From the NCBI RefSeq assembly GCF_050920415.1, contig NZ_CP169309.1: DNA of 64,000 nt; one strand, written 5' to 3'. The notes beneath the pieces were generated by a model. It worked only from the letters and a program-made list of their open reading frames with translations, ran no database searches and was not told the origin of the DNA. Positions within the stretch are counted from its first letter, which is position 1. The number at the start of each line of letters is the position of its first letter. The position numbers were made by a program, and so were the translations under genes. The stretch comes from Escherichia coli (GTDB lineage Bacteria > Pseudomonadota > Gammaproteobacteria > Enterobacterales > Enterobacteriaceae). Shown piece after piece: positions 1 to 62,372 of the stretch.

Positions 1-41
1 TCGACGGCGGCTTAAGTATGCCGCGCTTCTGAGGCTGAATC

Positions 42-884: not shown

Positions 885-893
885 GGAATGATC

Positions 894-1670
894 ATGAGTG
901 ACCAACCCGTTCTGTTCAGCAGAGCGGCGGCTTCCTGCCGCCTGACATTGAACCGTGAAGATAAATGTCATGCTATTAATGAAGAAATGATCGAATCTCT
1001 CGACCATTATTTAAATGAAATTGAAAACGACACCACATTACGATTAGTCGAATTAACGGCAACCGGCGATAAATTCTTTTGTGCGGGCGGCGATATTAAA
1101 TCGTGGTCAGCCTATTCGCCATTAGATATGGGCAGAAAATGGATTAAACGCGGCAATGACGTTTTTAATCGCCTGCGCAATTTACCTCAATTAACGGTTG
1201 CGAATCTCAACGGTCATACTATCGGCGGTGGTATTGAACTTGCCTTGTGCTGCGATATTCGTATTGCCCGCCCCAGTGCGAAATTCTCTAATCCGGAAGT
1301 AATGCTCGGCATGGTGCCTGGCTGGATGGGCATTGAACGCGTGCTTAATCAGGTCGGTCCGGTGGTCGGTCGCCAGATGCTGATGCTGGGTAAACGCCTG
1401 ACGGCGCAGGAAGCTCAGGCGGCGAATTTAATTGATGAAGTGGTAGAAAAAGAACAGGTGGAAAGCTGGATGGCGAATCAGTTAGCGCAGCTGGAAAAAT
1501 GCGGTCCGGTGGCGCTCGCACATATCAAGCAACTGATTCTGGCTCTAGAAAATAAACATGCTGATTACCCGCACCAGTTACTGGCTGGATTAATGTCCGC
1601 CACTCAGGATTGCCAGCAGGCGACGCGCGCATTTGCCGAAAAAAGTAGCGTGAGCTTCCAAAATCAATAA
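894..1670 (+). CDS. enoyl-CoA hydratase/isomerase (crotonase) family protein, about 258 aa
   Basis: Crotonase-fold motifs FCAGGDIKSW and GHTIGGGIELALCCDIRIA. AAGGA at 883-887 sits 6 nt before the ATG at 894; the ORF-track start at 888 would leave no spacer. Confidence 0.72.
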   Translation: MSDQPVLFSRAAASCRLTLNREDKCHAINEEMIESLDHYLNEIENDTTLRLVELTATGDKFFCAGGDIKSWSAYSPLDMGRKWIKRGNDVFNRLRNLPQLTVANLNGHTIGGGIELALCCDIRIARPSAKFSNPEVMLGMVPGWMGIERVLNQVGPVVGRQMLMLGKRLTAQEAQAANLIDEVVEKEQVESWMANQLAQLEKCGPVALAHIKQLILALENKHADYPHQLLAGLMSATQDCQQATRAFAEKSSVSFQNQ

Positions 1671-1679
1671 GGAAATTGT

Positions 1680-3221
1680 ATGCGTAAGATAACAACCGCC
1701 GAGACACTGGCGGCGCAAATTCAGGACGGCGCAACCATTGCCATTAGCGGTAATGGCGGCGGCATGGTGGAAGCGGACCATATTCTGGCTGCTATTGAAG
1801 CGCGTTTCCTGCAAACCGGACACCCGCGCGATCTGACATTAATCCACTCGCTGGGCATTGGCGATCGCGACTGCAAAGGCACTAACCGCTTCGCTCATGC
1901 AGATATGCTCAAACGCATCATTGCCGGACATTTTACCTGGTCGCCCAAGATGCAGGATCTGGTGAAAAACAATGCTATTGAAGCCTACTGCTTCCCTGGT
2001 GGCGTAATTCAGGCACTGCTGCGGGAGATCGGTGCCGGACGTCCAGGGCTTTTTACCCACGTTGGACTGGGATCGTTTGTTGATCCGCGCAACGGCGGCG
2101 GTAAGTCGAACGCCAGCACCACTGAGGATCTGGTAGAACTGATTGAAATCGACGGTGAAACCAAACTTCGTTATCGCCCTTTCAAAGTGGATTACGCGAT
2201 TTTGCGTGGCACTTATGCTGATCCGCGTGGCAACGTCAGCCTCGAAGAAGAGGCGATTGATATGGATAGCTATTCCATGGCGCTGGCAGCACACAACAGC
2301 GGCGGCAAAGTGTTCGTACAGGTGCGCGATGTGCTGGAAGCTGGTGCCATTGAACCACGCCGGGTCAAATTACCGGGCATTCTGGTTGATGGCATCGTTG
2401 AACACCGCGAACAACCACAAACCTATCTTGGCGGTTACGATCTGACCATTAGCGGTCAGCATCGCCGTCTAAGTTCTAACGACGCAATTGAACTGGTTAG
2501 TCATCCGGTGCGCCGCCTGATTGCCCGTCGGGCAGCACGCGAACTGGTAGCTGGCGCTTCAACCAACTTTGGCTTTGGCATTCCCGGCGGCATTCCTGGG
2601 GTTGCACTGCGCGAAGGCGTGCCTTATCAAAGTTTATGGCTGAGCGTCGAGCAAGGCGTGCATAACGGTATGATGCTGGATGATGCTCTGTTCGGCTGCG
2701 CCCGTAACGCCGATGCCATTATTCCATCACTCGATCAATTCGAATTCTACAGTGGCGGAGGGATCGATATCACCTTCCTCGGCATGGGAGAGATGGATCA
2801 GCATGGTAACGTCAACGTCTCCCATCTCAATGGCAATCTCATTGGCCCCGGCGGATTTCTCGAAATTGCGCAAAACGCCCGTAAAGTGGTGTTCTGTGGC
2901 ACGTTCGACGCCAAAGGTAGCAAGATTGATGTAACACCAGATGGCTTGCATATCGCCCAGTCAGGTCAAATCCCTAAACTGGTTACCCAGGTGGAAAAAA
3001 TCACTTTTAGCGCCGCCTACGCACAGCAAAGCGGTCAGGAAGTGTTGTATATCACTGAACGTGCAGTATTCCAGTTAACGGCAGAAGGCGTTGAATTAAT
3101 TGAAATCGCGCCGGGTGTGGAGATTGAACGCGACATTCTGCCGCATATGGCTTTCCGTCCAATTATCAATCAGCCACGCCTGATGGAAAGTAGCCTGTTT
3201 ACGCCGATGGAGGATGCATGA
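1680..3221 (+). CDS. CoA-transferase (family I, acetyl-CoA hydrolase/transferase-like), 513 aa
   Basis: ORF with TAAGGA 6 nt upstream. Size and Gly-rich N-terminal region (ISGNGGGM) resemble YdiF-type acyl-CoA:acetate CoA-transferases. Family call from memory, not searched. Confidence 0.6.
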   Translation: MRKITTAETLAAQIQDGATIAISGNGGGMVEADHILAAIEARFLQTGHPRDLTLIHSLGIGDRDCKGTNRFAHADMLKRIIAGHFTWSPKMQDLVKNNAIEAYCFPGGVIQALLREIGAGRPGLFTHVGLGSFVDPRNGGGKSNASTTEDLVELIEIDGETKLRYRPFKVDYAILRGTYADPRGNVSLEEEAIDMDSYSMALAAHNSGGKVFVQVRDVLEAGAIEPRRVKLPGILVDGIVEHREQPQTYLGGYDLTISGQHRRLSSNDAIELVSHPVRRLIARRAARELVAGASTNFGFGIPGGIPGVALREGVPYQSLWLSVEQGVHNGMMLDDALFGCARNADAIIPSLDQFEFYSGGGIDITFLGMGEMDQHGNVNVSHLNGNLIGPGGFLEIAQNARKVVFCGTFDAKGSKIDVTPDGLHIAQSGQIPKLVTQVEKITFSAAYAQQSGQEVLYITERAVFQLTAEGVELIEIAPGVEIERDILPHMAFRPIINQPRLMESSLFTPMEDA

Positions 3222-5299
3222 GTCAGCTTGATGACACCCTCCTTGATGCGCTGACGCACGTCACTTTCCCGAAGGGTTTTGTGTCAGCAGAGCCAGCGTC
3301 AATTGTCACGGTTGAAGATGTCGATTACCCGATCTGGCAAGTTGATGCGCTAGTCGTTGGTAGCGGCGCGGCAGGGCTGCGCGCAGCGGTTGAACTTAAG
3401 CGCCGCCAGCAAAATGTGCTGATCGCCACCGCCGGGTTATATATGGGGACATCGGCATGTTCTGGTTCCGATAAACAGACGCTGTTTACCGCCGCTACCG
3501 CGGGCAACGGCGATAACTTCGCTAAACTGGCGGAAGCACTGGCGAGCGGTGGGGCGATGGATCACGACACCGCTTATGTCGAAGCGGTAGGTTCTCTGCA
3601 CACTCTTGGCGGGTTGCAATATCTTGGTCTGGAATTACCGGAAGATCGCTATGGCGCAATTCTTCGTTATCAAACCGACCATGACGAAGCCGGGCGAGCA
3701 ACCTCGTGTGGGCCGCGTACTTCTCGCCTAATGGTGAAAGTATTGCTGGAGGAAGTGCAGCGTCTTGCCATACCACTACTGACCAGTGCAACGGTGATTA
3801 AGCTCCTGCATCAGCACGGAGAGAATGGCGAAGATCGCGTTGCGGGGGCTATTCTCGCAACCGGTTCCCGCGCCTATAACCCTTGGGGGCTGGCTATTGT
3901 GACGGCGCCCAATGTGGTACTGGCAACGGGCGGACCGGGCGAGCTTTATCGCGACAGTGTTTATCCACATAAATGCTTCGGCTCGCTGGGGCTGGCGCTG
4001 GAAGAAGGTCTGACGCTAACCAATCTGACCGAAAGCCAGTTTGGTATAGGCACGCCGCGCAGCACGTTTCCGTGGAATTTGTCCGGCACCTATGTACAGG
4101 TGATCCCATATATCTATTCCGTGGATGCCGGGGGCAACGAGTATAACTTCCTCGCAGATTACTATCGCACCACCCAGGAGCTGGCTTCAAACATCTTCCG
4201 TAAAGGCTATCAGTGGCCGTTTCACGCCACACGAGTGATGGATTTTGGCTCCAGCTTGTTAGATATGGCAGTAGCGCAAGAGCAGCAATCAGGGCGTCAG
4301 GTATTTATGGATTTCAATCGCAATCCTGAACCTGTGCCGGGTGACCTGCCGTTCTCATTAGATCGACTGGACGACGACGTTCGCGCGTATCTGGAAAATA
4401 ACGACGCTCTGGCACCATCGCCCATCGAACGACTGCAACGAATGAATCCGCTGTCTATCTCGCTGTATAAGATGCACGGTTACGATCTCACCACGCAGCC
4501 ATTGCAGTTTGCCATGAATAATCAGCATATGAATGGCGGCATTGAAGTGGATATCTGGGGGCAAACCTCCCTGTCCGGCTGTTTCGCCGTGGGGGAAGTT
4601 GCTGGCACACACGGCGTCACTCGCCCTGGTGGTGCGGCATTGAATGCCGGGCAGGTTTTTGCTGTTCGTCTGGCACGTTTTATTGGTTGCACGCAAAAGC
4701 GGTCCGTTGAGGATGATGTCGCGCAGCTAGTAGCCTCACCTCTGCATACAATCAGAGAAGTTATCGCTCAGGCACTGGCAAACGAGAACGGAATGACGCT
4801 GGCAACGGTAAAAGAAAAAATCCAGGCGCGAATGTCTGATTACGCGGGATTTATTTGCCATGCTGATAAAGTTCGTCACGCCGCCCGTGACGCCATGCTG
4901 TTAAATGAATTTGCGCAGCAACATGGTCTAACTATCAACCACGCCGGTGAAATTGCCGAGCTATTTATGTGGCGGCATATGGCATTAACATCCGCTGCGG
5001 TGTTAAGCCAGCTATCACATTATATTGATGCTGGCGGTGGTAGTCGTGGAGCGCGGATGATTATTGATCCACAAGGAGAATATCTTCCACAAACTCGTCG
5101 CGGCGCAATCGAAGATTGGCGTTTTCGCTCTGAACAAGCTGAAGATAAAAATCACAGACTAACTCTCTCCTTTTCACAAGGTTTATTTATTAATGAAATT
5201 AAGTTCTTGAGAAACTTACCGCATATTAAAGGTATTTACTTTGAGAAGAATTGGCCTGATTTTCTTAACGGAACAATTTATCAGACACGGCATGAATAA
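3218..5299 (+). CDS. FAD-dependent oxidoreductase, fumarate-reductase/succinate-dehydrogenase flavoprotein-like fold, 693 aa
   Basis: Start overlaps the upstream stop (ATGA) with GGAGGA RBS. Dinucleotide-binding motif VVGSGAAGLRAAVEL near the N-terminus and an ATGGPGELY segment typical of FAD-binding-2 enzymes. No signal peptide; the last ~250 aa are not recognisable. Confidence 0.62.
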   Translation: MSQLDDTLLDALTHVTFPKGFVSAEPASIVTVEDVDYPIWQVDALVVGSGAAGLRAAVELKRRQQNVLIATAGLYMGTSACSGSDKQTLFTAATAGNGDNFAKLAEALASGGAMDHDTAYVEAVGSLHTLGGLQYLGLELPEDRYGAILRYQTDHDEAGRATSCGPRTSRLMVKVLLEEVQRLAIPLLTSATVIKLLHQHGENGEDRVAGAILATGSRAYNPWGLAIVTAPNVVLATGGPGELYRDSVYPHKCFGSLGLALEEGLTLTNLTESQFGIGTPRSTFPWNLSGTYVQVIPYIYSVDAGGNEYNFLADYYRTTQELASNIFRKGYQWPFHATRVMDFGSSLLDMAVAQEQQSGRQVFMDFNRNPEPVPGDLPFSLDRLDDDVRAYLENNDALAPSPIERLQRMNPLSISLYKMHGYDLTTQPLQFAMNNQHMNGGIEVDIWGQTSLSGCFAVGEVAGTHGVTRPGGAALNAGQVFAVRLARFIGCTQKRSVEDDVAQLVASPLHTIREVIAQALANENGMTLATVKEKIQARMSDYAGFICHADKVRHAARDAMLLNEFAQQHGLTINHAGEIAELFMWRHMALTSAAVLSQLSHYIDAGGGSRGARMIIDPQGEYLPQTRRGAIEDWRFRSEQAEDKNHRLTLSFSQGLFINEIKFLRNLPHIKGIYFEKNWPDFLNGTIYQTRHE

Positions 5300-5319
5300 T
5301 ATTGCAAAGGTTAATCACT

Positions 5320-5796
5320 ATGCGAAATATAATCAGATCTATTAATTCATTGCTTTCCACATTGAACATTACCATTTTGGCAATTATTGTGATGTGCGTT
5401 ACATGGCAAGTAGTAGCACGATTTATCTTTAAAAGCCCCAGCATTTTTACAGATGAACTTAGTCGTTTACTATTTATTTGTCTTGGACTTTTTGGTGGTG
5501 CTTATACTGCCGGACAAAACCGACATCTGGCCATTGATCTTCTGCCAATGATGCTAAAAGGAAAATCCCGACGTTATTTATTCTTATGTATTCAGGCCAT
5601 TGTTATTCTTTTTGCCTCTATCATTATGGTTTATGGTGGCGGGTTATTAACACTGGACACATTTGATTCAGGGCAAACTTCTCCGGCTTTAGGCTGGCAG
5701 ATGGGATATATTTACATGAGCATTCCAATAAGTGGCATCCTTATTATTATATACACCATAGATACAGTTTTAACCGAACTTAAACAACCACTCTAA
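5320..5796 (+). CDS. TRAP transporter small permease (DctQ-like), about 158 aa
   Basis: Small hydrophobic multi-TM protein immediately upstream of DctM-like and DctP-like genes. ATG at 5320 with AAAGG 9 nt upstream is preferred over the TTG at 5302. AT-rich coding sequence. Confidence 0.6.
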   Translation: MRNIIRSINSLLSTLNITILAIIVMCVTWQVVARFIFKSPSIFTDELSRLLFICLGLFGGAYTAGQNRHLAIDLLPMMLKGKSRRYLFLCIQAIVILFASIIMVYGGGLLTLDTFDSGQTSPALGWQMGYIYMSIPISGILIIIYTIDTVLTELKQPL

Positions 5797-5818
5797 AATA
5801 AGTAGGGATGGAGAAAAC

Positions 5819-7120
5819 ATGGATTACTGGTTACCGATCATTGTGTTATTTGGTGCTTTCTTTTTTATGTTGGCATTAGGTGTTCCTATTGTCTATGCTA
5901 TTGGTTTATCAACACTGGCATCAATTACTACACAACTCGATTTCAACTCAGCGTTAAGTGTGGTTTCCCAAAAGTTAGCCTCCGGGTTAGATAGTTTTAC
6001 GTTGTTGGCAATCCCATTTTTTATTTTGTCTGGCAACATTATGAATCACGGAGGAATAGCGCGACGATTAATCAACTTTGCCCGAATTCTCGGCGGTCGT
6101 CTGCCAGGCTCACTTGCCCACTGTAATATTCTTGCCAATATGCTGTTCGGGGCAATTTCTGGTTCAGCCGTGGCTTCGGCGGCTGCGATGGGCGGCGTCA
6201 TGCATCCGCAACAGGTTAAAGAGGGCTACGACCCGGCATTCAGTACTGCAGTTAACGTTGCCTCTGCCCCGACGGGTTTGCTTATTCCACCCAGTAATAC
6301 GTTAATCGTCTATTCACTGGTCAGTGGTGGTACTTCTATTGCCGCACTGTTCCTGGCAGGATATGTCCCGGGAATTTTATTGGGCCTGGCGCTGATGACT
6401 GTGGCTGGTATTATCGCGGTACGCCGGGGTTATCCAAAACCAGAACGTCCGACTTTGCGCCAGGCTGGAGTGGCAATATGGATGGCGATCCCCAGTATTT
6501 TCCTGATTGTATTAATTATGGGTGGTGTACTAAGCGGTATTTTTACCCCGACAGAAGCATCTGCAATTGCGGTAATTTATACCCTTTTCCTTGCACTGGT
6601 TCTTTATCGTGAAATATCAGTTAAAGATTTACCTAAGATATTTCTGGAGTCCGTCATTACCACTGCAATTGTCTTGTTGTTAATTGGTTCTTCAATGGGA
6701 ATGTCATGGGCAATGTCAAACGCTGACGTTCCCTTCCTGATTCTCGATTTGCTTAACACTATTTCTGACAATCCAATAATCATCCTGCTTATTATCAATA
6801 TTATCCTGTTGATTATCGGCACATTTATGGATATGACACCGGCAGTACTGATTTTTACGCCGATATTTTTACCCGTTGTCACCGAACTGGGTATGGACCC
6901 GATTCACTTTGGTATTGTCATGGTACTGAACATGTGTATCGGTATTTGTACTCCGCCTGTAGGCAGTGTGTTATTTGTCGGTTGTAGTGTATCTAAATTA
7001 CCGATTAATAAAATTATCAAACCTATGCTGCCATTCTATGCCGTGATGGTATTGGTGCTGGCAATGGTTACCTATATTCCGCAAATCAGTATGGCATTGC
7101 CAAGAGCACTGGGCTACTGA
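5819..7120 (+). CDS. TRAP transporter large permease (DctM-like), 433 aa
   Basis: 433-aa polytopic membrane protein with the size and hydrophobicity pattern of DctM-family permeases. GGATGGAG RBS; positioned between Q-like and P-like genes. Confidence 0.7.
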   Translation: MDYWLPIIVLFGAFFFMLALGVPIVYAIGLSTLASITTQLDFNSALSVVSQKLASGLDSFTLLAIPFFILSGNIMNHGGIARRLINFARILGGRLPGSLAHCNILANMLFGAISGSAVASAAAMGGVMHPQQVKEGYDPAFSTAVNVASAPTGLLIPPSNTLIVYSLVSGGTSIAALFLAGYVPGILLGLALMTVAGIIAVRRGYPKPERPTLRQAGVAIWMAIPSIFLIVLIMGGVLSGIFTPTEASAIAVIYTLFLALVLYREISVKDLPKIFLESVITTAIVLLLIGSSMGMSWAMSNADVPFLILDLLNTISDNPIIILLIINIILLIIGTFMDMTPAVLIFTPIFLPVVTELGMDPIHFGIVMVLNMCIGICTPPVGSVLFVGCSVSKLPINKIIKPMLPFYAVMVLVLAMVTYIPQISMALPRALGY

Positions 7121-7172
7121 TATGCATTAACTGGCGGCACCTGCCGCCATATTTATTAGAAAAGGAACATCT

Positions 7173-8144
7173 ATGAAAATAAAAGTATCCGCTGGCATTA
7201 TCGGTGCTGTTCTTATGCTATCCGCAAGCCAGTCCTGGGCAGTAACATTAAAACTTAGCCATAATCAGGATAAATCTCATCCTGTTCATAAAGCGATGGA
7301 GTTCTTTGCGAAAAAGAGCAAAGAGTACTCTAACGGTGATATTACTATTCGTATTTATCCAAATGGAACATTGGGTACTCAACGAGAAACAATGGAGCTG
7401 ATTCGTTCTGGTGCTATTCCGCTGGTAAAAACCAATGCGGCGGAGATGGAAGCCTTCGAGAGTTCGTATAAAATATTTAGCCTGCCTTATTTGTTCCGCG
7501 ATCGTGATCATTATTATCAGGTCATGCAAGGCGATATCGGAAGGAAAATCCTCGACTCAACGAAAAGCAAAGGTTATTTCGGGCTGACTTTCTATGATGG
7601 AGGCGCCCGCAGTTTCTACGGTAATAAACCGGTACTGAAACCAGACGATCTGAAAGGCATGAAAGTCCGTGTCCAGCCAAGTCCTGGCGCAGTTGAAATG
7701 ATCAAAGTCATGGGCGGTAACCCGACGCCACTGGATTACGGCGAGCTGTATACGGCCTTACAGCAGGGCGTGGTCGATATGGCAGAAAACAGCGTGATGG
7801 CACTGACCACTATGCGTCACGGTGAAGTGGCAAAATCCTTTAGCCTTGATGAGCACACCATGGTGCCCGATGTGGTTCTGATGAGTAATGCTGCATTTGA
7901 TAAACTCAGCCCTGAAAATCAGGCAGTTATATTAAAAGCAGCGAAAGAATCGATGAGTTACATGAAGGAGTTATGGAGCGAGCAAGAGAAACAAGAATTT
8001 GCAAAACTGGATAAAATGGGCGTAAAAGTCTACCCGGTTGATAAAGCACCGTTTATCGAGAAAGTACAACCGATGTACGCAAACTTCGCTAAAGATAACC
8101 CTGCCCTTGCCCCAATGCTGGCTGATATTCAGGCGGCTAAGTAA
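7173..8144 (+). CDS. TRAP transporter periplasmic substrate-binding protein (DctP-like), 323 aa
   Basis: N-terminal signal peptide (MKIKVSAGIIGAVLMLSASQSWA), size typical of DctP-family binding proteins, AAAGGA RBS. Last gene of the operon, convergent with rplI. Confidence 0.7.
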   Translation: MKIKVSAGIIGAVLMLSASQSWAVTLKLSHNQDKSHPVHKAMEFFAKKSKEYSNGDITIRIYPNGTLGTQRETMELIRSGAIPLVKTNAAEMEAFESSYKIFSLPYLFRDRDHYYQVMQGDIGRKILDSTKSKGYFGLTFYDGGARSFYGNKPVLKPDDLKGMKVRVQPSPGAVEMIKVMGGNPTPLDYGELYTALQQGVVDMAENSVMALTTMRHGEVAKSFSLDEHTMVPDVVLMSNAAFDKLSPENQAVILKAAKESMSYMKELWSEQEKQEFAKLDKMGVKVYPVDKAPFIEKVQPMYANFAKDNPALAPMLADIQAAK

Positions 8145-21820: not shown

Positions 21821-22459
21821 TTAGCCTCCCCAGTGCCCACGGGCGCTGGAAGAACGACCATAGCCGCCGCGAGAAACAGTTGACGCTTTTCTGGTGGTAA
21901 AGCCGCCCGAGGAGTAAGACTCTTTTTTGCCAGAACCGGAGCGCCAGGAGTAATCACCGGAAGTATTGCGCCAGACGGGGCGGGAAGCAAATGAGGATCC
22001 ACCGCTGTTATAAACGAACGGCTCATCGCGATCTTTACGAATAACCCGGCTTAATAAAAATCCAGAAATGACCGGGATCCAACTCTGTTCAACATTGTCG
22101 TAGTAGCAATTTTCGTACTTAGACTGACAATTCTGCTGAGTCATATTCTTCGGAACATCGGCATAAAATGCCGCTTTGGCATTGTTCCAGCCATGAGCAC
22201 AGATATCTGAATTATTACCGTCATCAATACAATCCTGCACTGTCGAGTAAAACGTTCCGTCACCGTCGTTATCGACATCACCACTATCGCCACAACCTTT
22301 CAATACAAAAAAAGCTGCACCGCCCATTAGCGCCAACGTTAAGTATTTTTGTGCGTAGCGATTGCGTCGCGGCTCAAAAGGATTATTAGGTCTTCCAATG
22401 CGACTGATCGCTCCGTGACCAATTTTACTGTTATTTCTTGATTTGCGTTTTCTGGCCAT
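21821..22459 (-). CDS. yjfM: DUF1190-family protein YjfM
   Basis: 212-aa ORF, Gly/Ser-rich C-terminal half; 2-nt gap to yjfC. Confidence 0.9.
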   Translation of the reverse strand: MARKRKSRNNSKIGHGAISRIGRPNNPFEPRRNRYAQKYLTLALMGGAAFFVLKGCGDSGDVDNDGDGTFYSTVQDCIDDGNNSDICAHGWNNAKAAFYADVPKNMTQQNCQSKYENCYYDNVEQSWIPVISGFLLSRVIRKDRDEPFVYNSGGSSFASRPVWRNTSGDYSWRSGSGKKESYSSGGFTTRKASTVSRGGYGRSSSARGHWGG

Positions 22460-22468
22460 GATCGTCCA

Positions 22469-22867
22469 TTACCATGTCATACAAGCTGCGTTAAAAATAC
22501 CGCCAGCCAGCGCGGCGGTTCCCATAAACATTCCTGCTGCGGTATTGTGATTAATAATTTTTTCGCTTAATGCTGGCATATAAAGTCTGACGCCAGCAAA
22601 AACGAGTAACTGAATCACCAGTGCGATCCCGCCCCAGGCAAAATAATCCGGAATACTCACCGCATTGATTGCCGCACTAGATAATGGGATCACGTAACCC
22701 AACAATGTACCACTGAACGCCAGTGCCGCCGCGGTATTATTGTTTTTAATTAACTGCCATTCGTTGTGCGGTGTAATTTTGGAGTAGATAAACAGAAAAA
22801 TAATCACCATAGCCACGCCAATAAAAAAATAGGCGCTAAAGGCAAGAAGTGAATCCAGTATATGCAT
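22469..22867 (-). CDS. yjfL: DUF350-family inner-membrane protein YjfL
   Basis: 132-aa hydrophobic ORF MHILDSLLAFSAYFFIGVAMVIIFLFIYSKITPHNEW... Confidence 0.9.
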   Translation of the reverse strand: MHILDSLLAFSAYFFIGVAMVIIFLFIYSKITPHNEWQLIKNNNTAAALAFSGTLLGYVIPLSSAAINAVSIPDYFAWGGIALVIQLLVFAGVRLYMPALSEKIINHNTAAGMFMGTAALAGGIFNAACMTW

Positions 22868-22884
22868 CGTAAACGTCCTTGTAA

Positions 22885-23544
22885 TTAACCAATAATATGA
22901 AGTGATGTCAGTGGGATATCAACACCCAGTGCGCGCGAAAATAACCACTCCGGCTCGCCGAGATCGTTAAAAGATTCCTCACCATTTAACAGCAAATATT
23001 CACAGGTATCTTCGGTCACCTGCCGTTCATAGCCCATGGTAAAATTATGCACTTCCCATTTGGCGTGGTTTTGATTTTCAACTTTTTCCAGCATATAGAC
23101 GGGTTCGATATTCCCCGGTTCTTCGCTGTTAAAAAATCGCTGCCAGCGTTTTTCCTGCCAGTTTAATGTCATTGCCCCCATCGCTTTGGCGTTGATCGCT
23201 TCGCGCCAGTGGCTCTCTTTGCTGATACCGTAGCTCTCTTCATAGACAAAGAGCTTTATATCATCAATGTCATCAATATCTTCGCCGCCGGTGGTATTGA
23301 TTTGCAGAAATTCATCGCCCGAAGTGTAGTAGCGGAAAATCTGACTACCGCCGCCCAGATCGATGTGGCTGACAGCGGCTACCGTAAATTCTTCACCCGG
23401 CAGCGCAATCAGCAATTCATCTTCCAGCAAACGAAACGCTAACGTGTCGAGCGTAAAGCCGCTATTGAGATGAAGTCCCAGCGGGCCACGTGCGGTTACA
23501 GGTTTATCATCCTTACCAAACAGACGCTTGAAAAAACTTGTCAT
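22885..23544 (-). CDS. yjfK: DUF2491-family protein YjfK
   Basis: 219-aa translation MTSFFKRLFGKDDKPVTARGPLGLHLNSGF...; start ATG overlaps the stop of the upstream channel-like gene (ATGA) with GAGGGAAG RBS. Confidence 0.9.
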   Translation of the reverse strand: MTSFFKRLFGKDDKPVTARGPLGLHLNSGFTLDTLAFRLLEDELLIALPGEEFTVAAVSHIDLGGGSQIFRYYTSGDEFLQINTTGGEDIDDIDDIKLFVYEESYGISKESHWREAINAKAMGAMTLNWQEKRWQRFFNSEEPGNIEPVYMLEKVENQNHAKWEVHNFTMGYERQVTEDTCEYLLLNGEESFNDLGEPEWLFSRALGVDIPLTSLHIIG

Positions 23545-24611
23545 ATGCTTCCCTCAATGTCCTGCCATACCACTTCTTCAGCCAAAATACGGTTATTGCC
23601 AATAAGATGCAGCCACATACCGCCTTTAACTTCCGTTGCAATGACTGGATTCAGTTCCATTCCCCTACCATTTTTACAACTGCTTATTCCCAGGACGGTG
23701 GCATCATGATGAAGTTTCATATAATGCATCAATGCGCCATAACGCATCGAGGTAACCCGTTCAGGAATCGGTAAAACAAACCCCGTATCCCCCAGCATTG
23801 GATTCATAATCGATGCCACTGATTGAGATGAACCGGGATCTTGTATTGAACGGGAAAGTTGTTCTGCTGAAATATTTCGCACTATTTCAATACGTTGACA
23901 ATGAACCTCTAATAAACGAGCGTAGCGTTCATCTTCCAGATAAGCGACGATATGGCATCTTTCAGGAATAAAATCCGCCAGGGATAGTGCGGTCGTGAAC
24001 GTCTGCTCATCTGTTTGCGAAAAGATGATGACACTTTGGCAATTTGCCAGTCCCATGCGGGTATGTTCATGCGGATCATTAAAATTACTAATACGAATGA
24101 AATCGACCCAATTATTTCCAGGCATCGGATGTTGAATATCATCCCGCTCACACAAAAGTACCCGGCCAAATGCTCTTCGGGAATCAAACAACAATAATGA
24201 AATCATCTTTTCAGTCTGATGCCCGCGCCATCCAATGACCAGCATATGGTTGCGCAAATTGCTGTAGTCGCCCATTCCCGTCATTCCTTTCGCCAATATG
24301 TCTTGCACTAATGCAATGACTTTTCCCATTAAAGCGCCAAATAAACCAACACTCACAGGAATCTGCCAGAGCGCTGTGAACAGACGTCCCCCAACCGTTT
24401 GGGGTGTGATATCACCAAACCCCAGCGTTGATCCCACAACCGAGCAGTAATAAATAAAATTACTCAGTTGACCTACCAACGCCTCTTCATGCAACGCAGT
24501 TAACACCAGATAACAAAACAGATACTGTCCTGTAAATAATCCAGTCAATGCCGGCCAGGTAAGCCTGGAAAGGTGACGTCGGCAGGTTTTAATGATCCAG
24601 GAGAAGAACAT
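23541..24611 (-). CDS. putative 2-TM potassium-channel-like protein with a C-terminal RCK/TrkA-N-like domain, 356 aa; not in the K-12 gene order as I recall it
   Basis: Uninterrupted 1071-nt ORF between yjfJ and yjfK. Contains TM1 (residues ~21-45), a pore helix and K+-selectivity-filter-like TLGFGD (residues 62-67, nt 24411-24428), TM2 (~74-100), then a Rossmann-like HMLVIGWRGHQ... segment. Start overlaps the yjfJ stop (TAATG) and stop overlaps the yjfK start (ATGA). Appears AT-richer than its neighbours. Confidence 0.75.
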   Translation of the reverse strand: MFFSWIIKTCRRHLSRLTWPALTGLFTGQYLFCYLVLTALHEEALVGQLSNFIYYCSVVGSTLGFGDITPQTVGGRLFTALWQIPVSVGLFGALMGKVIALVQDILAKGMTGMGDYSNLRNHMLVIGWRGHQTEKMISLLLFDSRRAFGRVLLCERDDIQHPMPGNNWVDFIRISNFNDPHEHTRMGLANCQSVIIFSQTDEQTFTTALSLADFIPERCHIVAYLEDERYARLLEVHCQRIEIVRNISAEQLSRSIQDPGSSQSVASIMNPMLGDTGFVLPIPERVTSMRYGALMHYMKLHHDATVLGISSCKNGRGMELNPVIATEVKGGMWLHLIGNNRILAEEVVWQDIEGSI

Positions 24612-25309
24612 TACTCGCCCTGTTGGCGTTGCAGTCTTGCTAATACATCCTGGGCGCTACTTTTGTTGCTACCGCCAATTCCGGCTTCCGCCAGTTTTTC
24701 ATCAAGATCGCGACCATCTGCCACTTTTTCCAGCTGTGCGGCAGCATCCAGGCGAGCTTGACGTTCGGCCTGACGCGTTTGCAGACGCTTTAAGGATTCT
24801 GCCGCTGTCGAAACGCTGGAAGATGCGCCAACAGTAGAGGTCGTTACGGCCTGTTGTGCACGCTGCATGGCTTCAGTAGCTTTAACGACTTCCATTTGTT
24901 GCTCAAATTGAGCGATACGCTGTGCTGTCGCTGTAACCGCTTTTTCCACACCATCGCGAGAGACCTCCAGATTCGACAACACTTGCTCTTCAGCGGTAAT
25001 GAGATTCTCAAGACGGGCGATTTCTTCAGCAACTTCGTTAATCAACGACGGATTAACATTCTTGCTTAACGCTTCCAGCGCGCGAGCTTCCAGACTGGCT
25101 TTACGCTCACGTAAATCTTTCAGTTTATCGTTGCTCAATTTCACTCTTGCCAGTAGATCGACACGTGATTTACCGGCCTTATCCAGTTCTGCTTTGGCAT
25201 CGCGTATATGCTGTTCAAGCATTCTAACGCCCTGTGCTTCTTCAATGGATTCTTCCGCTTGCGAGATCACCGATTTACCCAGCGTAAATAAAGTTTTTAA
25301 AATTCCCAT
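24611..25309 (-). CDS. yjfJ: PspA/IM30-family protein YjfJ
   Basis: 232-aa coiled-coil-rich translation MGILKTLFTLGKSVISQAEESIEEAQGVRMLEQHIRDAKAELD... characteristic of the PspA/Vipp1 family. Confidence 0.93.
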   Translation of the reverse strand: MGILKTLFTLGKSVISQAEESIEEAQGVRMLEQHIRDAKAELDKAGKSRVDLLARVKLSNDKLKDLRERKASLEARALEALSKNVNPSLINEVAEEIARLENLITAEEQVLSNLEVSRDGVEKAVTATAQRIAQFEQQMEVVKATEAMQRAQQAVTTSTVGASSSVSTAAESLKRLQTRQAERQARLDAAAQLEKVADGRDLDEKLAEAGIGGSNKSSAQDVLARLQRQQGE

Positions 25310-25327
25310 AAATACCTGTCCTTGTAA

Positions 25328-25729
25328 TTAGTGTGAATATTCTTCTGTAATTTCAGCAAGATCCAAAGCGTTATCTACCAGCGTGGTTATTTCCAGCAGG
25401 ATATCTTCAAGAGAAGATTTAAGCGATAACGCCCCGAAAACAATGTAATACTCTTCCTCTTGCACGCTGGAGATCCCTACCGATGACAACGGCATCATCT
25501 TCTGATTTCTTAATAAGAAGGTATTAAATTCATCTGGATTGCTGATACTACTTACCGGACAAATAAAGGTTTCGATAATCATTTGGCGGGAAGTAAAAAG
25601 AATATTGATTTGCAAATCGCCATAATCATTCATTTTAATAATTAATGCGTTTTCATTATTTGTTATATCAATATTTTGTTCAGGTACAGTTTGCAGCGCC
25701 GTCGCCAGCGCCAACGGATTCCATGTCAT
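25328..25729 (-). CDS. yjfI: DUF2170-family protein YjfI
   Basis: 133-aa ORF MTWNPLALATALQTVPEQNIDITNNENALIIK...; first gene of the yjfI-yjfC operon, with an AT-rich promoter region upstream (25730-25808). Confidence 0.9.
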   Translation of the reverse strand: MTWNPLALATALQTVPEQNIDITNNENALIIKMNDYGDLQINILFTSRQMIIETFICPVSSISNPDEFNTFLLRNQKMMPLSSVGISSVQEEEYYIVFGALSLKSSLEDILLEITTLVDNALDLAEITEEYSH

Positions 25730-25808
25730 ATATTATTCCATATAAATTAAGTTTAAATATTAATAAAATGAATATTTGTAGTACGTAATTATCTTACCAG
25801 CTATAGAC

Positions 25809-25840
25809 AAAAAAAAACCATCCAAATATGGATGGTTTTT
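25809..25840 (-). terminator. rho-independent terminator downstream of rlmB (bidirectional form)
   Basis: Stem CCATCCA/TGGATGG (25818-25824 and 25829-25835), with a 9-nt A-run on one side (25809-25817) and TTTTT on the other (25836-25840). Confidence 0.8.
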
Positions 25841-25855
25841 CATAATTCAGAGAAA

Positions 25856-26587
25856 TTAGCTACGCTGGCGTACCGCTTCAAATAAGCAAATGCCTGTCGC
25901 CACAGAAACGTTCAGCGAAGAAACACTTCCTGCCATTGGGATGCTGATCAACTCATCGCAATGTTCACGGGTCAGGCGACGCATGCCTTCACCTTCTGCG
26001 CCCATCACCAGTGCCAGCCGTCCGGTCATTTTGCTCTGATAGAGCGTATGATCCGCCTCTCCTGCCGTACCGACGATCCAAATATTCTCTTCCTGCAACA
26101 TACGCATGGTGCGCGCCAGGTTAGTCACCCGAATCAGCGGAACGCTTTCTGCCGCGCCGCAGGCCACTTTTTTCGCCGTGGCGTTGAGCTGTGCGGAGCG
26201 ATCTTTCGGCACAATCACCGCATGAACGCCAGCGGCGTCCGCGCTGCGCAGGCACGCGCCGAGGTTGTGCGGATCGGTCACACCGTCGAGGATCAGCAGG
26301 AACGGTTGATCGAGCGAAGCGATCAGATCCGGCAGATCGTTTTCCTGATACTGACGTCCTGGCTTCACACGGGCGATAATGCCCTGATGCACGGCACCGT
26401 CGCTTTTCTCGTCGAGATATTGGCGGTTTGCCAGCTGGATAACCACGCCCTGGGACTCAAGGGCGTGAATCAGCGGCAACAGACGTTTATCTTCACGGCC
26501 TTTTAAAATAAAGACTTCCTGAAAACGTTCAGGGGCGCGCTCCAGCAGGGCCTGCACTGCGTGGATGCCGTAAATCATTTCACTCAT
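25856..26587 (-). CDS. rlmB: 23S rRNA (guanosine2251-2'-O)-methyltransferase RlmB
   Basis: 243-aa SpoU/TrmH-family translation [44 protein letters not shown]... Confidence 0.95.
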
Positions 26588-57768: not shown

Positions 57769-58302
57769 ATGCGCCTGCTCCCTCTCGTTGCCGCAGCGAC
57801 AGCTGCATTCCTGGTCGTTGCCTGCAGTTCTCCTACGCCGCCGCGTGGCGTGACAGTAGTGAATAATTTCGACGCCAAACGTTATCTCGGTACCTGGTAT
57901 GAGATTGCCCGTTTTGATCACCGCTTTGAACGTGGACTGGAAAAAGTCACCGCAACATACAGTCTGCGGGATGATGGCGGCCTGAATGTCATTAATAAAG
58001 GCTATAATCCTGACAGAGAAATGTGGCAGCAGAGTGAAGGGAAAGCGTACTTTACCGGCGCACCAACTCGCGCTGCGCTGAAAGTGTCATTCTTTGGTCC
58101 TTTCTATGGCGGTTATAACGTTATTGCACTCGATCGGGAATACCGCCATGCGCTGGTTTGCGGCCCGGACCGCGACTACCTGTGGATACTCTCCCGCACG
58201 CCAACCATTTCTGACGAAGTGAAACAGGAAATGCTGGCAGTCGCGACCCGGGAAGGGTTTGATGTCAGTAAGTTTATTTGGGTACAGCAGCCCGGTAGTT
58301 AG
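57769..58302 (+). CDS. blc: outer-membrane lipocalin Blc
   Basis: 177-aa ORF with lipoprotein signal peptide (LVVACSS lipobox) [35 protein letters not shown]... Confidence 0.95.
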
Positions 58303-58616
58303 TGAGTGCTGAGTTTCAGACCAATAATCCCCAATACGATTAACGCCAGGCTCGCCAGGCGCATCGGGTTAGCGGACTCACCGAGCAGCACAATACCGGT
58401 GATGGCCGCGCCGACTGCGCCAATACCCGTCCACACGGCATAAGCTGTCCCTACTGGTAACGATTTCATCGCCCAGGCAAGTAGCGCCATACTGACAATC
58501 ATCGCCGTCACGGTAATAACACTTGGCGTCAAACGACTAAAGCCGTGGGTATATTTCAGGCCAACGGCCCATACCACTTCCAGCAGGCCAGCAATAACTA
58601 AGATAATCCAGGACAT
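58299..58616 (-). CDS. gdx: SMR-family guanidinium exporter Gdx (SugE)
   Basis: 105-aa product starting [26 protein letters not shown]... at the ATG at 58616 (GGAG RBS); convergent 4-nt overlap with blc. The ORF-track N-terminal extension is actually the riboswitch leader. Confidence 0.94.
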
Positions 58617-58634
58617 ATCAGGCTCCGGAGAATT

Positions 58635-58677
58635 GGGGCCGTCCCCGGTGAAAAGAGGCGTTTGCAGGTCGTCCTGC
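58635..58677 (-). promoter_or_regulatory. guanidine-II riboswitch (mini-ykkC motif) in the gdx leader
   Basis: Two tandem hairpins with ACGR loops on the minus-strand RNA: GCAGG-ACGA-CCUGC (58664-58677) and GGGG-ACGG-CCCC (58635-58646), separated by 17 nt and sitting just upstream of the gdx RBS. Confidence 0.8.
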
Positions 58678-58748
58678 AAAGCTGATGGTTGAACGGGTAT
58701 TTTGCCAGGTGGCAGGGGAATTTCAACTATTACCTTAGTGACTATCGC

Positions 58749-59228: not shown

Positions 59229-59795
59229 TTACTTCACGCGAGAGACGTATTCACCAGAGCGGGTATCCACTTTGATGACTTCGCCGATCTGCACGAACAG
59301 CGGAACTTTAACCACAGCGCCAGTAGACAGGGTAGCCGGTTTGCCGCCAGTACCTGCGGTATCCCCTTTCAGGCCTGGATCGGTATCAACGATTTCCAGT
59401 TCAACAAAGTTCGGCGGAGTAACGGAGATCGGCTGACCATTCCACAGAGTTACGATACACTCTGCCTGATCCAGCAACCATTTAGCGTTGTCGCCAATTG
59501 CTTTTGCATCAGCAGACAGTTGCTCGAAAGTTTCGTTGTTCATGAAGTGCCAGAACTCACCGTCGTTGTACAGGTAAGTCAGGTTCATATCGACAACATC
59601 AGCGCCTTCAGCGGAATCAGTAGATTTGAAGGTTTTTTCTACGCGAGTACCGGTCAGCAGACGACGCAGTTTAACGCGAGCAAATGCCTGGCCTTTACCC
59701 GGTTTTACGAATTCACTCGCTTCAACCGCGTAAGGTTCGCCGTCTAACATGATTTTAAGACCAGCACGAAAATCGTTGCTATAGTACGTTGCCAT
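59229..59795 (-). CDS. efp: elongation factor P
   Basis: 188-aa translation [46 protein letters not shown]... (Lys34 modification site in KPGKGQA). Confidence 0.97.
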
Positions 59796-59836: not shown

Positions 59837-60865
59837 ATGGCGCATATTGTAACCCTAAATACCCCATCCAGAGAAGATTGGTTAACGCAACTTGCCGATG
59901 TTGTGACCGATCCTGATGAACTTCTGCGTCTTTTGAATATAGACGCGGACGAAAAACTGTTGGCCGGACGCAGCGCCAAAAAGCTGTTTGCCCTGCGTGT
60001 TCCCCGCTCATTTATCGATCGCATGGAGAAAGGCAATCCGGACGATCCACTTTTGCGTCAGGTACTTACCTCGCAAGATGAGTTTGTCGTCGCGCCCGGA
60101 TTCTCCACCGACCCGCTGGAAGAACAGCACAGCGTAGTGCCTGGTTTGTTGCATAAATACCACAACCGGGCGCTATTGCTGGTCAAAGGCGGCTGTGCGG
60201 TAAATTGCCGTTATTGCTTTCGTCGCCATTTCCCGTATGCCGAAAATCAGGGCAACAAGCGAAACTGGCAGACGGCACTTGAGTATGTTGCAGCGCATCC
60301 GGAACTGGACGAGATGATTTTCTCCGGCGGCGATCCGCTGATGGCGAAAGATCACGAGCTGGACTGGTTGCTCACACAACTGGAAGCCATCCCGCATATC
60401 AAACGTCTGCGGATTCACAGCCGTCTGCCGATTGTGATCCCGGCACGCATCACAGATGCGCTGGTCGAACGCTTTTCACATTCTACGCTGCAAATCTTGC
60501 TGGTGAATCACATCAACCATGCCAATGAGGTAGATGAAACATTCCGCCAGGCGATGGCTAAGTTGCGCCGGGTAGGCGTTACTTTGCTGAACCAGAGCGT
60601 TCTGTTACGTGGTGTGAACGATAACGCACAAACGCTGGCAAACCTGAGTAATGCGTTGTTCGATGCGGGCGTGATGCCGTATTACCTGCATGTGCTCGAT
60701 AAAGTACAGGGCGCGGCGCATTTTATGGTGAGTGATGACGAAGCACGGCAGATTATGCGTGAGCTGCTGACGCTGGTATCTGGATATATGGTGCCGAAAC
60801 TGGCGCGCGAGATTGGCGGCGAACCCAGCAAAACGCCGCTGGATCTCCAGCTACCCCAGCAGTAA
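59837..60865 (+). CDS. epmB: EF-P beta-lysylation enzyme EpmB (lysine 2,3-aminomutase-like radical SAM protein)
   Basis: 342-aa translation with radical-SAM CxxxCxxC motif (CAVNCRYCFRRH); divergent from efp. Confidence 0.95.
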   Translation: MAHIVTLNTPSREDWLTQLADVVTDPDELLRLLNIDADEKLLAGRSAKKLFALRVPRSFIDRMEKGNPDDPLLRQVLTSQDEFVVAPGFSTDPLEEQHSVVPGLLHKYHNRALLLVKGGCAVNCRYCFRRHFPYAENQGNKRNWQTALEYVAAHPELDEMIFSGGDPLMAKDHELDWLLTQLEAIPHIKRLRIHSRLPIVIPARITDALVERFSHSTLQILLVNHINHANEVDETFRQAMAKLRRVGVTLLNQSVLLRGVNDNAQTLANLSNALFDAGVMPYYLHVLDKVQGAAHFMVSDDEARQIMRELLTLVSGYMVPKLAREIGGEPSKTPLDLQLPQQ

Positions 60866-61099
60866 CTGATTAAACAGGGAAGTTTAATCTTTGCACGTTG
60901 CATAACCTTTAATTATTCATATACATTGCTGTTATTACTTTTTATATAACCAACACCAATAATTAACCTTTCTTTTCTGTTTATATAGAGTGAGCACGGC
61001 TATTTATGTTATTTTAACAACTATTACTACCAAGCCCATTTATCTGGCTTATAAATTAAAATTAATTATTTAATTGAGAAATGGTTAGGGAGAACCTAC

Positions 61100-61969
61100 A
61101 TGGCCATAAGCATCAAGGGTGTTAATACCGGTGTTATTCGCAAGAGTAATAATTTCATTGCACTGGCGCTGAAAATTAAAGAGCCTCGCAATAAAGAATC
61201 GTTGTTCTTTCTGTCTGTCATGGAACTGCGCGACCTGCTGATTGCGCTGGAAAGCCGTCTGCATCAAAAGCATAAACTGGATGCTGCAGCACGCCTTCAG
61301 TATGAGCAAGCTCGCGATAAAGTCATTAAGAAAATGGCAGAAAATATCCCAGAAATTCTGGTTGATGAGCTTAAAAATGCCGATATTAATCGTCGAGTTA
61401 ACACGCTGGAACTTACCGATAATCAGGGTGAAAATCTTACCTTCGTATTAACGCTACATGACGGTAGCAAATGTGAGTTAGTCATCAATGAGTTGCAGAT
61501 TGAAATGCTGGCGCGAGCAATCATTCATGCAATTAATAATGCGGAAATGCGTGAACTGGCATTACGTATTACCTCACTGTTAGATTTCCTGCCGTTATAC
61601 GACGTTGACTGCCAGGACAATGGCAATCTGGAATATGACACCTATTCCCAACCAGAATGGAAACATAACTTGTTCAACCATTATCTGGCAGTGCTTTATC
61701 GCTTTAAAGATGAAAATGGCAAAGAGCAATTTAGCGGCGCGGTGGTGAAAACGCGTGAAGCAACGCCGGGTAAAGAAGTGGAGGCGATCACTCGCCGAAT
61801 GCTTGATTTCAGCCCTAGACTGAAAAAACTCGCGGGTGTGCCATGTCAGGTCTATGTTCGCACCGTAGCGGCAAATAACACCCAACCGCTAACCCAGGAT
61901 CAATGCTTACGCGCGCTGCATCACTTACGTGTTCAGTCCATCAGCAAAAGTGCACCACAAGCGAAATAA
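61100..61969 (+). CDS. yjeJ: uncharacterized protein YjeJ
   Basis: 289-aa ORF MAISIKGVNTGVIRKSNNFIALALKIKEPRNKESLFF...; AT-rich gene preceded by a very AT-rich 234-bp intergenic region. Confidence 0.88.
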   Translation: MAISIKGVNTGVIRKSNNFIALALKIKEPRNKESLFFLSVMELRDLLIALESRLHQKHKLDAAARLQYEQARDKVIKKMAENIPEILVDELKNADINRRVNTLELTDNQGENLTFVLTLHDGSKCELVINELQIEMLARAIIHAINNAEMRELALRITSLLDFLPLYDVDCQDNGNLEYDTYSQPEWKHNLFNHYLAVLYRFKDENGKEQFSGAVVKTREATPGKEVEAITRRMLDFSPRLKKLAGVPCQVYVRTVAANNTQPLTQDQCLRALHHLRVQSISKSAPQAK

Positions 61970-62018
61970 TCTCATCTTTGCTAATGCGAGGCTGGAGTCA
62001 TCCAGCCTCTGAATCACA

Positions 62019-62372
62019 TCAATTCGGGCACTTATATACCTGGCCGATAATCTGGCTATCCGTCGGGACAAAACTGGACAACATTCCCTGCGACGGGCTG
62101 CTGATACCATAAATCACGTTACCACCCATTGCCGCTGCCTGGTTGCGCAGATCGTTTGCCGCACCACGCATAGAACCGCCTTCTTCACCGTGTTGCCCGG
62201 AAAGCCAGTTACTTTGCTTACCTGTCGCAGTACCAATCAACTGGCACTCTGCGCCTGGCTGCTCGTCCACAATGCGTACACTCTGACCGGCAGCACTCAA
62301 TTCGTTGCTGGAGCTACAACCCGCCATCAGTAGCGCGGCACCGACAATCCCTGCTAAGTATTTTACGTGCAT
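62019..62372 (-). CDS. yjeI: lipoprotein YjeI (DUF4156)
   Basis: 117-aa product starting MHVKYLAGIVGAALLMAGCSSSN... (lipobox LMAGC) at the ATG at 62372. Confidence 0.9.
   Translation of the reverse strand: MHVKYLAGIVGAALLMAGCSSSNELSAAGQSVRIVDEQPGAECQLIGTATGKQSNWLSGQHGEEGGSMRGAANDLRNQAAAMGGNVIYGISSPSQGMLSSFVPTDSQIIGQVYKCPN

Follow-up and report, generated by a model that had tools for sequence, protein, structure and literature searches.

Where does the AT-rich DNA around yjeJ, an Escherichia coli gene of 'function unknown' between epmB and yjeI, come from, and what may its product do? We have addressed this question in a 64,000-nucleotide stretch of the E. coli contig NZ_CP169309.1 (assembly GCF_050920415.1; hereafter the window), where yjeJ and the 234-bp spacer upstream of it form a patch of 1104 bp. 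The DNA is that of an E. coli other than K-12; the sequence of the locus is identical to that of E. coli strain MFDS1022581, whose RefSeq annotation confirms the gene identities; the MG1655 map is taken here to run opposite to the window orientation at this locus. Overall, the comparisons below indicate that the patch is probably the right-hand remnant of an old, AT-rich and horizontally mobile island. The coordinates of the features are collected in Table 1.

In K. oxytoca, K. variicola, K. pneumoniae and K. quasipneumoniae (Klebsiella), an island of ~11 kb with low GC content is found between epmB and yjeI (11.3 kb and 45.4% GC vs 53–55% in the flanks for K. oxytoca; 24–48% vs 54–61% for K. 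quasipneumoniae). It contains the genes for an OmpR-type regulator, a four-gene chaperone-usher fimbrial operon, one or two small peptides (100–122 aa), an HlyD-type membrane-fusion protein (MFP) and a C39-peptidase ATP-binding cassette (ABC) exporter (PCAT), and YjeJ is encoded last. In the full map, efp reads leftwards and epmB rightwards, the regulator gene leftwards, then fimbrial subunit, chaperone, usher, adhesin, peptide, MFP, PCAT and YjeJ all rightwards, and finally yjeI, groL and groS leftwards. We have seen this map completely in the K. oxytoca-complex, K. variicola and K. pneumoniae loci reached by a peptide search, and the slot is exactly that of yjeJ in E. coli. The left end of the K. 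quasipneumoniae locus translates into the C-terminus of EpmB.

The same association is met when the search starts from YjeJ, whose distant homologues are 24–39% identical to it over the full length. All seven chromosomal contexts reached in this way (Raoultella, K. pneumoniae, Kosakonia radicincitans, K. quasipneumoniae, two metagenomic contigs and Budvicia diplopodorum) place the gene 9–30 bp downstream of a Peptidase_C39 plus ABC exporter, which is itself preceded by an HlyD-type MFP and a chaperone-usher fimbrial operon. The one or two small open reading frames (ORFs) of each cluster are located upstream of the MFP gene; only in K. quasipneumoniae do they follow yjeJ. When the loci reached independently via the peptide are included, PCAT is followed by YjeJ in all 13 chromosomal exporter-linked loci examined (11 distinct contexts). 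K. radicincitans has the same eight-gene module between unrelated genes, again with yjeJ last, and in Budvicia the module has different neighbours; therefore yjeJ travels with it. By position, E. coli yjeJ is orthologous to the gene that ends the AT-rich island; since this gene is also met at other chromosomal sites and on plasmids, yjeJ appears to be of foreign ancestry.

In Escherichia, Citrobacter, Kluyvera, Trabulsiella, Yokenella, Kosakonia, Phytobacter, Pluralibacter and others, only yjeJ is present in the slot, and in a distance tree these solitary epmB-linked YjeJs fall into one clade, which branches from within the exporter-linked ones. Most parsimoniously, ~10 kb would have been lost once, long ago, in the common ancestor of Escherichia, Citrobacter, Kluyvera and their relatives, with the last gene, yjeJ, being retained. 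This gene would then have gained its own promoter, of the extended −10 type, and a strongly conserved AT-rich leader; in K-12, according to published data, H-NS occupies it and keeps its mRNA ~5-fold lower while expression is not abolished. Since neither a relic of the peptide, MFP or PCAT genes nor similarity of the spacer to the island is detectable in E. coli, the deletion is deduced from position and phylogeny. The preliminary description had proposed an old horizontal acquisition, and this agrees with the confinement of the family to Enterobacterales, with the AT-rich island found relocated among Klebsiella, Kosakonia and Budvicia, and with copies on plasmids.

The composition of the patch is unusual mainly in the spacer. 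Its GC content is reached by just 0.06% of all 234-bp segments in the window, and the minimum for this length (0.274) starts at 60861, five bases upstream of the spacer. Many A/T runs are present, including one of 27 nt (61049–61075). As described earlier, the upstream region is thus extremely AT-rich with long A/T tracts, and yjeJ is AT-richer than epmB and yjeI (Table 1; GC at third codon positions is 0.452 in yjeJ and 0.589 in epmB); the patch clearly differs from the window average of 51.4%. The gene body is AT-rich only moderately: yjeJ alone lies at the 8th percentile of 870-bp segments, and spacer plus gene at the 1.6th percentile of segments of their length. The spacer is extreme but not unique, as three to four comparable AT-rich spacers exist in the window, among them those at ~5145, ~14950 (ulaA/ulaG) and ~25594 (yjfI/rlmB; 27.8% GC).

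In most genera, the upstream tract has 18–30% GC and yjeJ lies 6–12 GC points under epmB. On the other hand, yjeJ matches the composition of its flanks in Kluyvera and Pluralibacter, and a few distant loci have a short, GC-rich spacer, so the AT-richness is not intrinsic to the YjeJ protein.

YjeJ is a full-length member of Pfam family PF15922 (E 1e-173; 576.6 bits with a cut-off of 27; profile positions 1–283 of 283). The segment is found at ≥80% coverage in 5381 of 5426 complete E. coli genomes, which makes it core. A species scan with eight query sequences and one genome per species found 45 yjeJ loci, and the order efp, epmB, yjeJ, yjeI, groL, in the orientations of Table 1, is kept in every locus long enough to include the flanks (40+ loci, at least 12 genera: Escherichia, Citrobacter, Pseudocitrobacter, Kluyvera, Superficieibacter, Salmonella (arizonae, diarizonae), Trabulsiella, Intestinirhabdus, Yokenella, Kosakonia, Phytobacter and Pluralibacter). 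YjeJ of other genera is 40–76% identical to that of E. coli, compared with 83–94% for EpmB, 73–93% for YjeI, 93–99% for Efp and 91–99% for GroL. The ratio of non-synonymous to synonymous substitution rates (dN/dS) of yjeJ is 0.04–0.17 against K-12, O157, the cryptic Escherichia clades, E. albertii and Citrobacter, its dN is 3.5–5 times that of epmB (0.165 vs 0.045 for Citrobacter; 0.336 vs 0.066 for S. diarizonae), and its dS is also above that of epmB. These rates indicate a gene under purifying selection that diverges fast. Being core, syntenic in at least 12 genera and under such selection, yjeJ is not decaying junk.

The family is tiny, with 341 clusters at 90% identity among 5.8 billion proteins and 99 representatives among 1.84 billion, and all members with a named source are from Enterobacterales, save evidently contaminated assemblies. 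The phylogenetic distribution, to which the preliminary description had pointed as a check, is that of a small enterobacterial family with exporter-linked island copies and plasmid copies. Loci on contigs labelled Bacillus coahuilensis m4-4 (L003), Bacteroidales metagenome-assembled genome (L018) and Chryseobacterium sp. 18061 (L045) are almost certainly assembly contamination; the L003 and L018 loci are 96–97% identical to E. coli. In Salmonella, yjeJ is decaying: that of S. enterica subsp. diarizonae is a pseudogene (start ATG changed to ATA, stop after 97 codons; L030:6001-6840), and no match was obtained for subsp. enterica in the species scan. For subsp. arizonae (L042), only the 3' two-thirds of yjeJ can be aligned.

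The substitution pattern of the spacer is uneven. Within Escherichia, variable sites amount to 39.5% in its 5' half and 23.8% in its 3' half, with 47.9% at the third codon positions of yjeJ, and they drop to 9.6% in the last 52 nt, which are 98% identical to E. albertii vs 86% for the yjeJ coding sequence. The 5' half is near-neutral in rate and the 3' half constrained, so that selection acts on the regulatory region.

Based on these data, other explanations of the patch can be weighed. The solitary gene might itself be ancestral: yjeJ would then be an old core gene whose AT-richness results from low expression and an AT-rich regulatory region, and Klebsiella would have inserted the fimbria/exporter island later, with a secondary operon fusion. 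This would suit the solitary state in at least 12 genera with perfect synteny, the core status in E. coli, the classification of yjeJ as not horizontally acquired by Forrest et al. (PMC8894471), and a slot that behaves as an insertion hot spot, having received a methyl-accepting chemotaxis protein gene in Kosakonia/Phytobacter, a 572-aa ORF in C. youngae and repetitive extragenic palindromic (REP) elements in K-12. However, the complete module including yjeJ resides at unrelated loci in K. radicincitans and Budvicia, the 9–30 bp spacing between PCAT and yjeJ is preserved across very divergent copies, the exporter-linked YjeJs are paraphyletic to the orphan clade, and the composition of yjeJ departs from that of the host in nearly every lineage, including within the island. 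An ancestral solitary gene, which fits the relocated modules and the tree less well, is thus considered unlikely. Still less probable is that the low GC content is a chance fluctuation of no biological meaning. Taken alone, yjeJ does not go beyond the 8th percentile. The spacer, however, coincides with the GC minimum of the window (the 0.06% tail), an AT-rich tract upstream and a low GC content of the gene are met again at the orthologous loci of most genera, and conservation in part of the AT tract far exceeds that of synonymous sites, by which this explanation is effectively refuted.

Certain observations nevertheless weigh against a remnant of an island. By tblastn, no homologue of the peptide, MFP or PCAT was detected in the window or in any orphan locus, and blastn detected no DNA similarity between the E. 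coli spacer and the Klebsiella island. The YjeJ tree is a neighbour-joining tree rooted at the midpoint, with no support values. In addition, the entry for yjeJ in PMC8894471 (AT 55%) reads 'horizontally acquired: no'.

The next question is that of H-NS, by which the preliminary description had supposed yjeJ to be silenced. In Forrest et al. 2022 (PMC8894471, Supplementary Data 2), yjeJ has a log2 fold change (log2FC) of +2.32 in Δhns vs wild-type E. coli K-12 (log counts per million, logCPM, 6.48; P 8.65e-9), with its neighbours unaffected (epmB −0.20; yjeI +0.61, P 0.067) and the known H-NS targets hdeAB, gadE, bglG and csgD positive in the same table. The gene is listed under 'H-NS bound' in the source data of Fig. 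1b of that paper, and in the portion of this column around it, yjeM and yjfI/J/K/L follow yjeJ, all derepressed in Δhns. The patch is therefore one of several H-NS-bound, derepressed patches in the window, and the expected occupancy is borne out by the published list despite an unmarked map from genomic systematic evolution of ligands by exponential enrichment (SELEX). That map (Shimada, 987 sites; PMC3946193), with no H-NS mark on the spacer, does speak against direct binding there, as does a scan with the H-NS motif TCGATAAATT, which gave no match inside the spacer at up to two mismatches; the derepression in Δhns could be partly indirect.

'Silenced' is too strong a word, because yjeJ is transcribed (logCPM 6.5), its protein is detected by proteomics in LB (PMC9508795), and the sigma-70 holoenzyme binds the spacer in vitro. 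A fair summary is that yjeJ is H-NS-bound and ~5-fold repressed, though not silent. The gene has also been cited as Nac-regulated and down in prolonged nitrogen starvation (PMC7417836).

Compared with classical xenogeneic silencing by H-NS, as at the bgl, hde/gad and csg loci and in cryptic fimbrial operons, yjeJ shares DNA that is AT-richer than the genome, a place in the H-NS-bound list, derepression in Δhns, a probable foreign-island ancestry and a promoter bound by RNA polymerase without further factors. It differs in its modest repression and measurable expression, in being core, syntenic across genera and under purifying selection, and in a gene body of only 55% AT, where the spacer provides most of the signal.

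In an alignment of the upstream regions of 14 species and genera, three blocks are conserved, i.e., TTATGTTATTTTAAC, AATTATTTAAT (~61063–61076) and ATGGTTAGGGAGAACC. The Shine-Dalgarno (SD) block is kept across genera, and the TTAACC-17-TAGAGT element within Escherichia only. For this last reason, we favour the extended −10 element TGtTATTTT (61007–61015) as the main yjeJ promoter, from which transcription is predicted to start at ~61022. In a genomic SELEX experiment with K-12 DNA, the RpoD (sigma-70) holoenzyme bound the epmB–yjeJ spacer in vitro (PMC3946193). A consensus scan for promoters and terminators found nothing on the + strand of the spacer, an Rfam scan of 58.5–62.6 kb gave no match inside the patch, a repeat search returned chance-level repeats only, and no unusual or stable RNA structure was predicted for the yjeJ leader (fold z −0.5).

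Inside yjeJ, the consensus scan marked a sigma-70-like site on the minus strand (61708–61680), and a genomic-SELEX peak of the RpoH (sigma-32) holoenzyme has been mapped within K-12 yjeJ (coordinate 4371850; PMC5493296). Both may be intragenic or antisense promoters, which are typical of AT-rich genes. At the other end, a hairpin (fold z-score −3.1), which K-12 and O157 have as well, separates the convergent yjeJ and yjeI; it probably serves both genes as a 3'-end or terminator element.

We turn to the function of YjeJ, beginning with the exporter-linked clusters. Their small ORFs (95–122 aa) begin with a double-glycine leader, MKxL(T/S)xxEMxxxSG(G/A); after it come YSW..., a hydrophobic body of the glycine-zipper type and, at the end, a conserved ...DGTFxPW. 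Against Pfam they score just under the gathering thresholds (MccV, E 0.004–0.03; Bacteriocin_IIc, E 0.014), and an NCBIfam scan gave no match. A search with the peptide returned 75 clusters, from Klebsiella species, Leclercia and Budvicia; some of them bear the name 'colicin V', and Escherichia is not represented. The family is common in Klebsiella, Leclercia, Raoultella, Kosakonia and Budvicia, always with its own MFP/PCAT and a chaperone-usher fimbrial operon (L051:692-1492, L061:8001-8369, L053:11077-12567 and relatives), and it is apparently uncharacterised so far. An insertion interrupts one K. quasipneumoniae copy of the peptide, and one K. pneumoniae genome has a broken MFP gene.

These clusters of Klebsiella, Kosakonia and Budvicia resemble those of class II microcins (MccV, with cvaC-cvi-cvaA-cvaB, MccL, MccN and MccPDI) and the Caulobacter Cdz glycine-zipper system in combining a double-glycine peptide of Gly-rich hydrophobic body with an HlyD-type MFP and a C39-peptidase ABC exporter. 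They likewise form a four-gene unit, in which YjeJ occupies the usual place of the immunity gene. Unlike class II microcin clusters, they are fused to a chaperone-usher fimbrial operon, no conserved candidate for a small membrane immunity ORF is evident in them, their peptides stay under the MccV and Bacteriocin_IIc thresholds, and an antibacterial role is putative. The E. coli locus is not itself a microcin cluster, because the defining genes (double-glycine precursor, C39 exporter and MFP) are absent from the window.

YjeJ could therefore tentatively be viewed as a self-protection or accessory factor of the peptide-export module that has been retained as an orphan in non-producers. No other conserved partner gene without an export function was found in the module, and yjeJ follows PCAT by 9–30 bp in each cluster examined; a self-protection role would also explain purifying selection combined with fast divergence. 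Points against this role are that YjeJ, unlike known microcin immunity proteins, has no transmembrane segment (maximal 19-residue Kyte-Doolittle hydropathy 1.25 over 289 aa), and that homologues exist on exporter-free plasmids next to par, hns and hha genes. Full-length solitary yjeJ genes occur on 38–47-kb Serratia plasmids near parA-like, hha, hns and topoisomerase genes. The E. coli plasmid pLAU-OXA4 (NZ_CP045281; L058:7001-7492) encodes a 163-aa homologue of the N-terminal half (21% identity, E 4e-6, Pfam YjeJ sub-threshold) 27 bp after genes for a parF-like ATPase and parG, as do about eight similar plasmids of 29–35 kb.

The plasmid neighbourhoods, the basic charge and the fold agree with another possible role, that of a PUR/Whirly-like nucleic-acid-binding protein that regulates AT-rich mobile DNA or assists there as a nucleoid-associated accessory, and whose chromosomal copy would have been kept for regulation. 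Self-protection and this role are the two foremost candidates, both rather doubtful and about equally likely. An AlphaFold2 model from a 26-sequence alignment (pLDDT 92.7, pTM 0.88) consists of three beta-sheet-plus-helix units joined by helices; the single-sequence model was poor (pLDDT 46), and the alignment-based one was used. Its fold is weakly PUR/Whirly-like with non-significant Foldseek scores, and conserved residues of the family are mostly aromatic or lysine (Y167, Y179, W187, F192 and K217; pattern DFLPLYD...WK...G...K). Unlike the single-stranded nucleic-acid-binding folds of PUR-alpha and Whirly, YjeJ shows no sequence similarity to these families in the Pfam scan or the profile search of the Protein Data Bank (PDB), and nucleic-acid binding is putative. 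A family-profile search matched no PDB sequence, Foldseek of the model against PDB and viral structures found nothing significant, Pfam gave no match beyond YjeJ, scans of NCBIfam, PADLOC and PHROGs returned nothing useful, and HHalign detected no internal sequence repeats. A phage origin or an anti-phage defence system was considered and dropped, there being no PHROG, PADLOC or viral fold signal.

Returning to self-protection, a more speculative form of it would join the fold and the module. YjeJ might be a soluble protein of a new type, PUR/Whirly-like in fold, which confers immunity to, or acts as a detoxifying chaperone of, glycine-zipper peptides with a double-glycine leader that are exported by a fimbria-coupled C39-ABC system. 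E. coli yjeJ might then be an H-NS-tuned orphan immunity gene that has shielded E. coli, Citrobacter and other enterics for tens of millions of years from exporting competitors such as Klebsiella, Raoultella, Kosakonia, Leclercia and Budvicia. Like orphan immunity genes of bacteriocins and toxins, yjeJ is a single gene, probably kept from a peptide-export cluster, diverges quickly under purifying selection and is widespread in species without the peptide. Unlike them, it encodes a soluble, PUR/Whirly-like protein of ~290 aa, and its immunity function is purely conjectural.

As an AT-rich, H-NS-repressed locus, yjeJ is a case of ordinary xenogeneic silencing, for which binding and expression data are already published. 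The link of the YjeJ family to an island with fimbria, double-glycine peptide and PCAT, and the E. coli gene as a remnant of it, appear to be undescribed: no paper connecting yjeJ or PF15922 with microcins was found in the literature searched, and the peptide leader motif was absent from the searched text. An uncharacterised E. coli core gene thereby gains a concrete evolutionary and functional context, its 'function unknown' becomes a set of cheaply testable hypotheses, and a widespread uncharacterised Klebsiella peptide family is brought to notice.

Table 1 Features of the yjeJ locus in the window, and comparison loci bearing the island or module
Feature	Coordinates or loci	Strand	Remarks
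efp	59229-59795	-	from the ORF list
epmB (elongation factor P (EF-P) beta-lysylation radical-SAM enzyme)	59837..60865	+	left boundary of the slot; GC 0.532, normal composition
epmB-yjeJ spacer	60866..61099	+	234 bp, 28.2% GC; holds the yjeJ promoter and 5' untranslated region
TTAACC-17-TAGAGT, predicted sigma-70 'constitutive promoter'	60963..60991	+	under the K-12 RpoD-holoenzyme SELEX peak (PMC3946193)
Cross-genus conserved block TTATGTTATTTTAAC	61003..61018	+	predicted extended -10: TG 61007-61008, TATTTT 61010-61015
Conserved AT tract and ribosome-binding block	61048..61099	+	ribosome-binding block ATGGTTAGGGAGAACC 61081-61096; SD GGGAG 61088-61092
yjeJ	61100..61969	+	289 aa, soluble, isoelectric point 8.6, PF15922, GC 0.448
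yjeJ/yjeI hairpin	61988..62009	.	GAGGCTGGA-GTCA-TCCAGCCTC; GC-rich, stable, without U-tract
yjeI (DUF4156 lipoprotein)	62019..62372	-	right boundary of the slot; GC 0.542, normal composition
groL	from 62510	-	
Island in the epmB-yjeI slot	L053, L061-L063, L064-L066, L051		
Module at other sites	L057, L056, L050		K. radicincitans, Budvicia and Raoultella, respectively

Besides the Klebsiella island, the epmB–yjeI interval, a hot spot of insertion, holds other inserts. Kosakonia sp. S29 has a gene for a methyl-accepting chemotaxis protein between yjeJ and yjeI, and Phytobacter an insert of the same size there (L036:6968-8686, L038 and L047); in Citrobacter youngae, epmB and yjeJ are separated by an unrelated ORF of 572 aa (L010:4060-5778). 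In K-12-like strains, palindromic elements of the REP type or bacterial interspersed mosaic element (BIME) type flank yjeJ on both sides (L001:1667-2060 and L001:2931-3132); the window is free of them (insertion points 60865/60866 and ~62010). The upstream insert of K-12-like strains is ~160 bp, directly after the epmB stop, with an imperfect ~28-bp direct repeat at its bounds, and the downstream one is ~153 bp, after the yjeJ/yjeI hairpin; O157 has the downstream insert alone. Junctions of ampC amplicons have often been located at yjeJ/epmB (PMC12625342).

Other low-GC regions exist in the window. Positions 1–8026 carry genes for a sugar-phosphate isomerase, an enoyl-CoA hydratase, a CoA-transferase, an FAD oxidoreductase and a TRAP transporter adjoining rplI (annotation of the identical strain); this block looks like a strain-variable metabolic island and includes the lowest-GC 870-bp segment of the window (35.6%, ~5158). 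The operon region yjfI-yjfJ-(potassium-channel gene)-yjfK-yjfL-yjfM-yjfC (21900–26400) is of low GC too, down to 37.6%. On the minus strand, a guanidine-II (mini-ykkC) riboswitch, a known element, was detected at 58634–58680 with 50.4 bits vs a Rfam gathering score of 32. It is located at the 5' end of the minus-strand ORF 58299–58679, which is presumably gdx/sugE.

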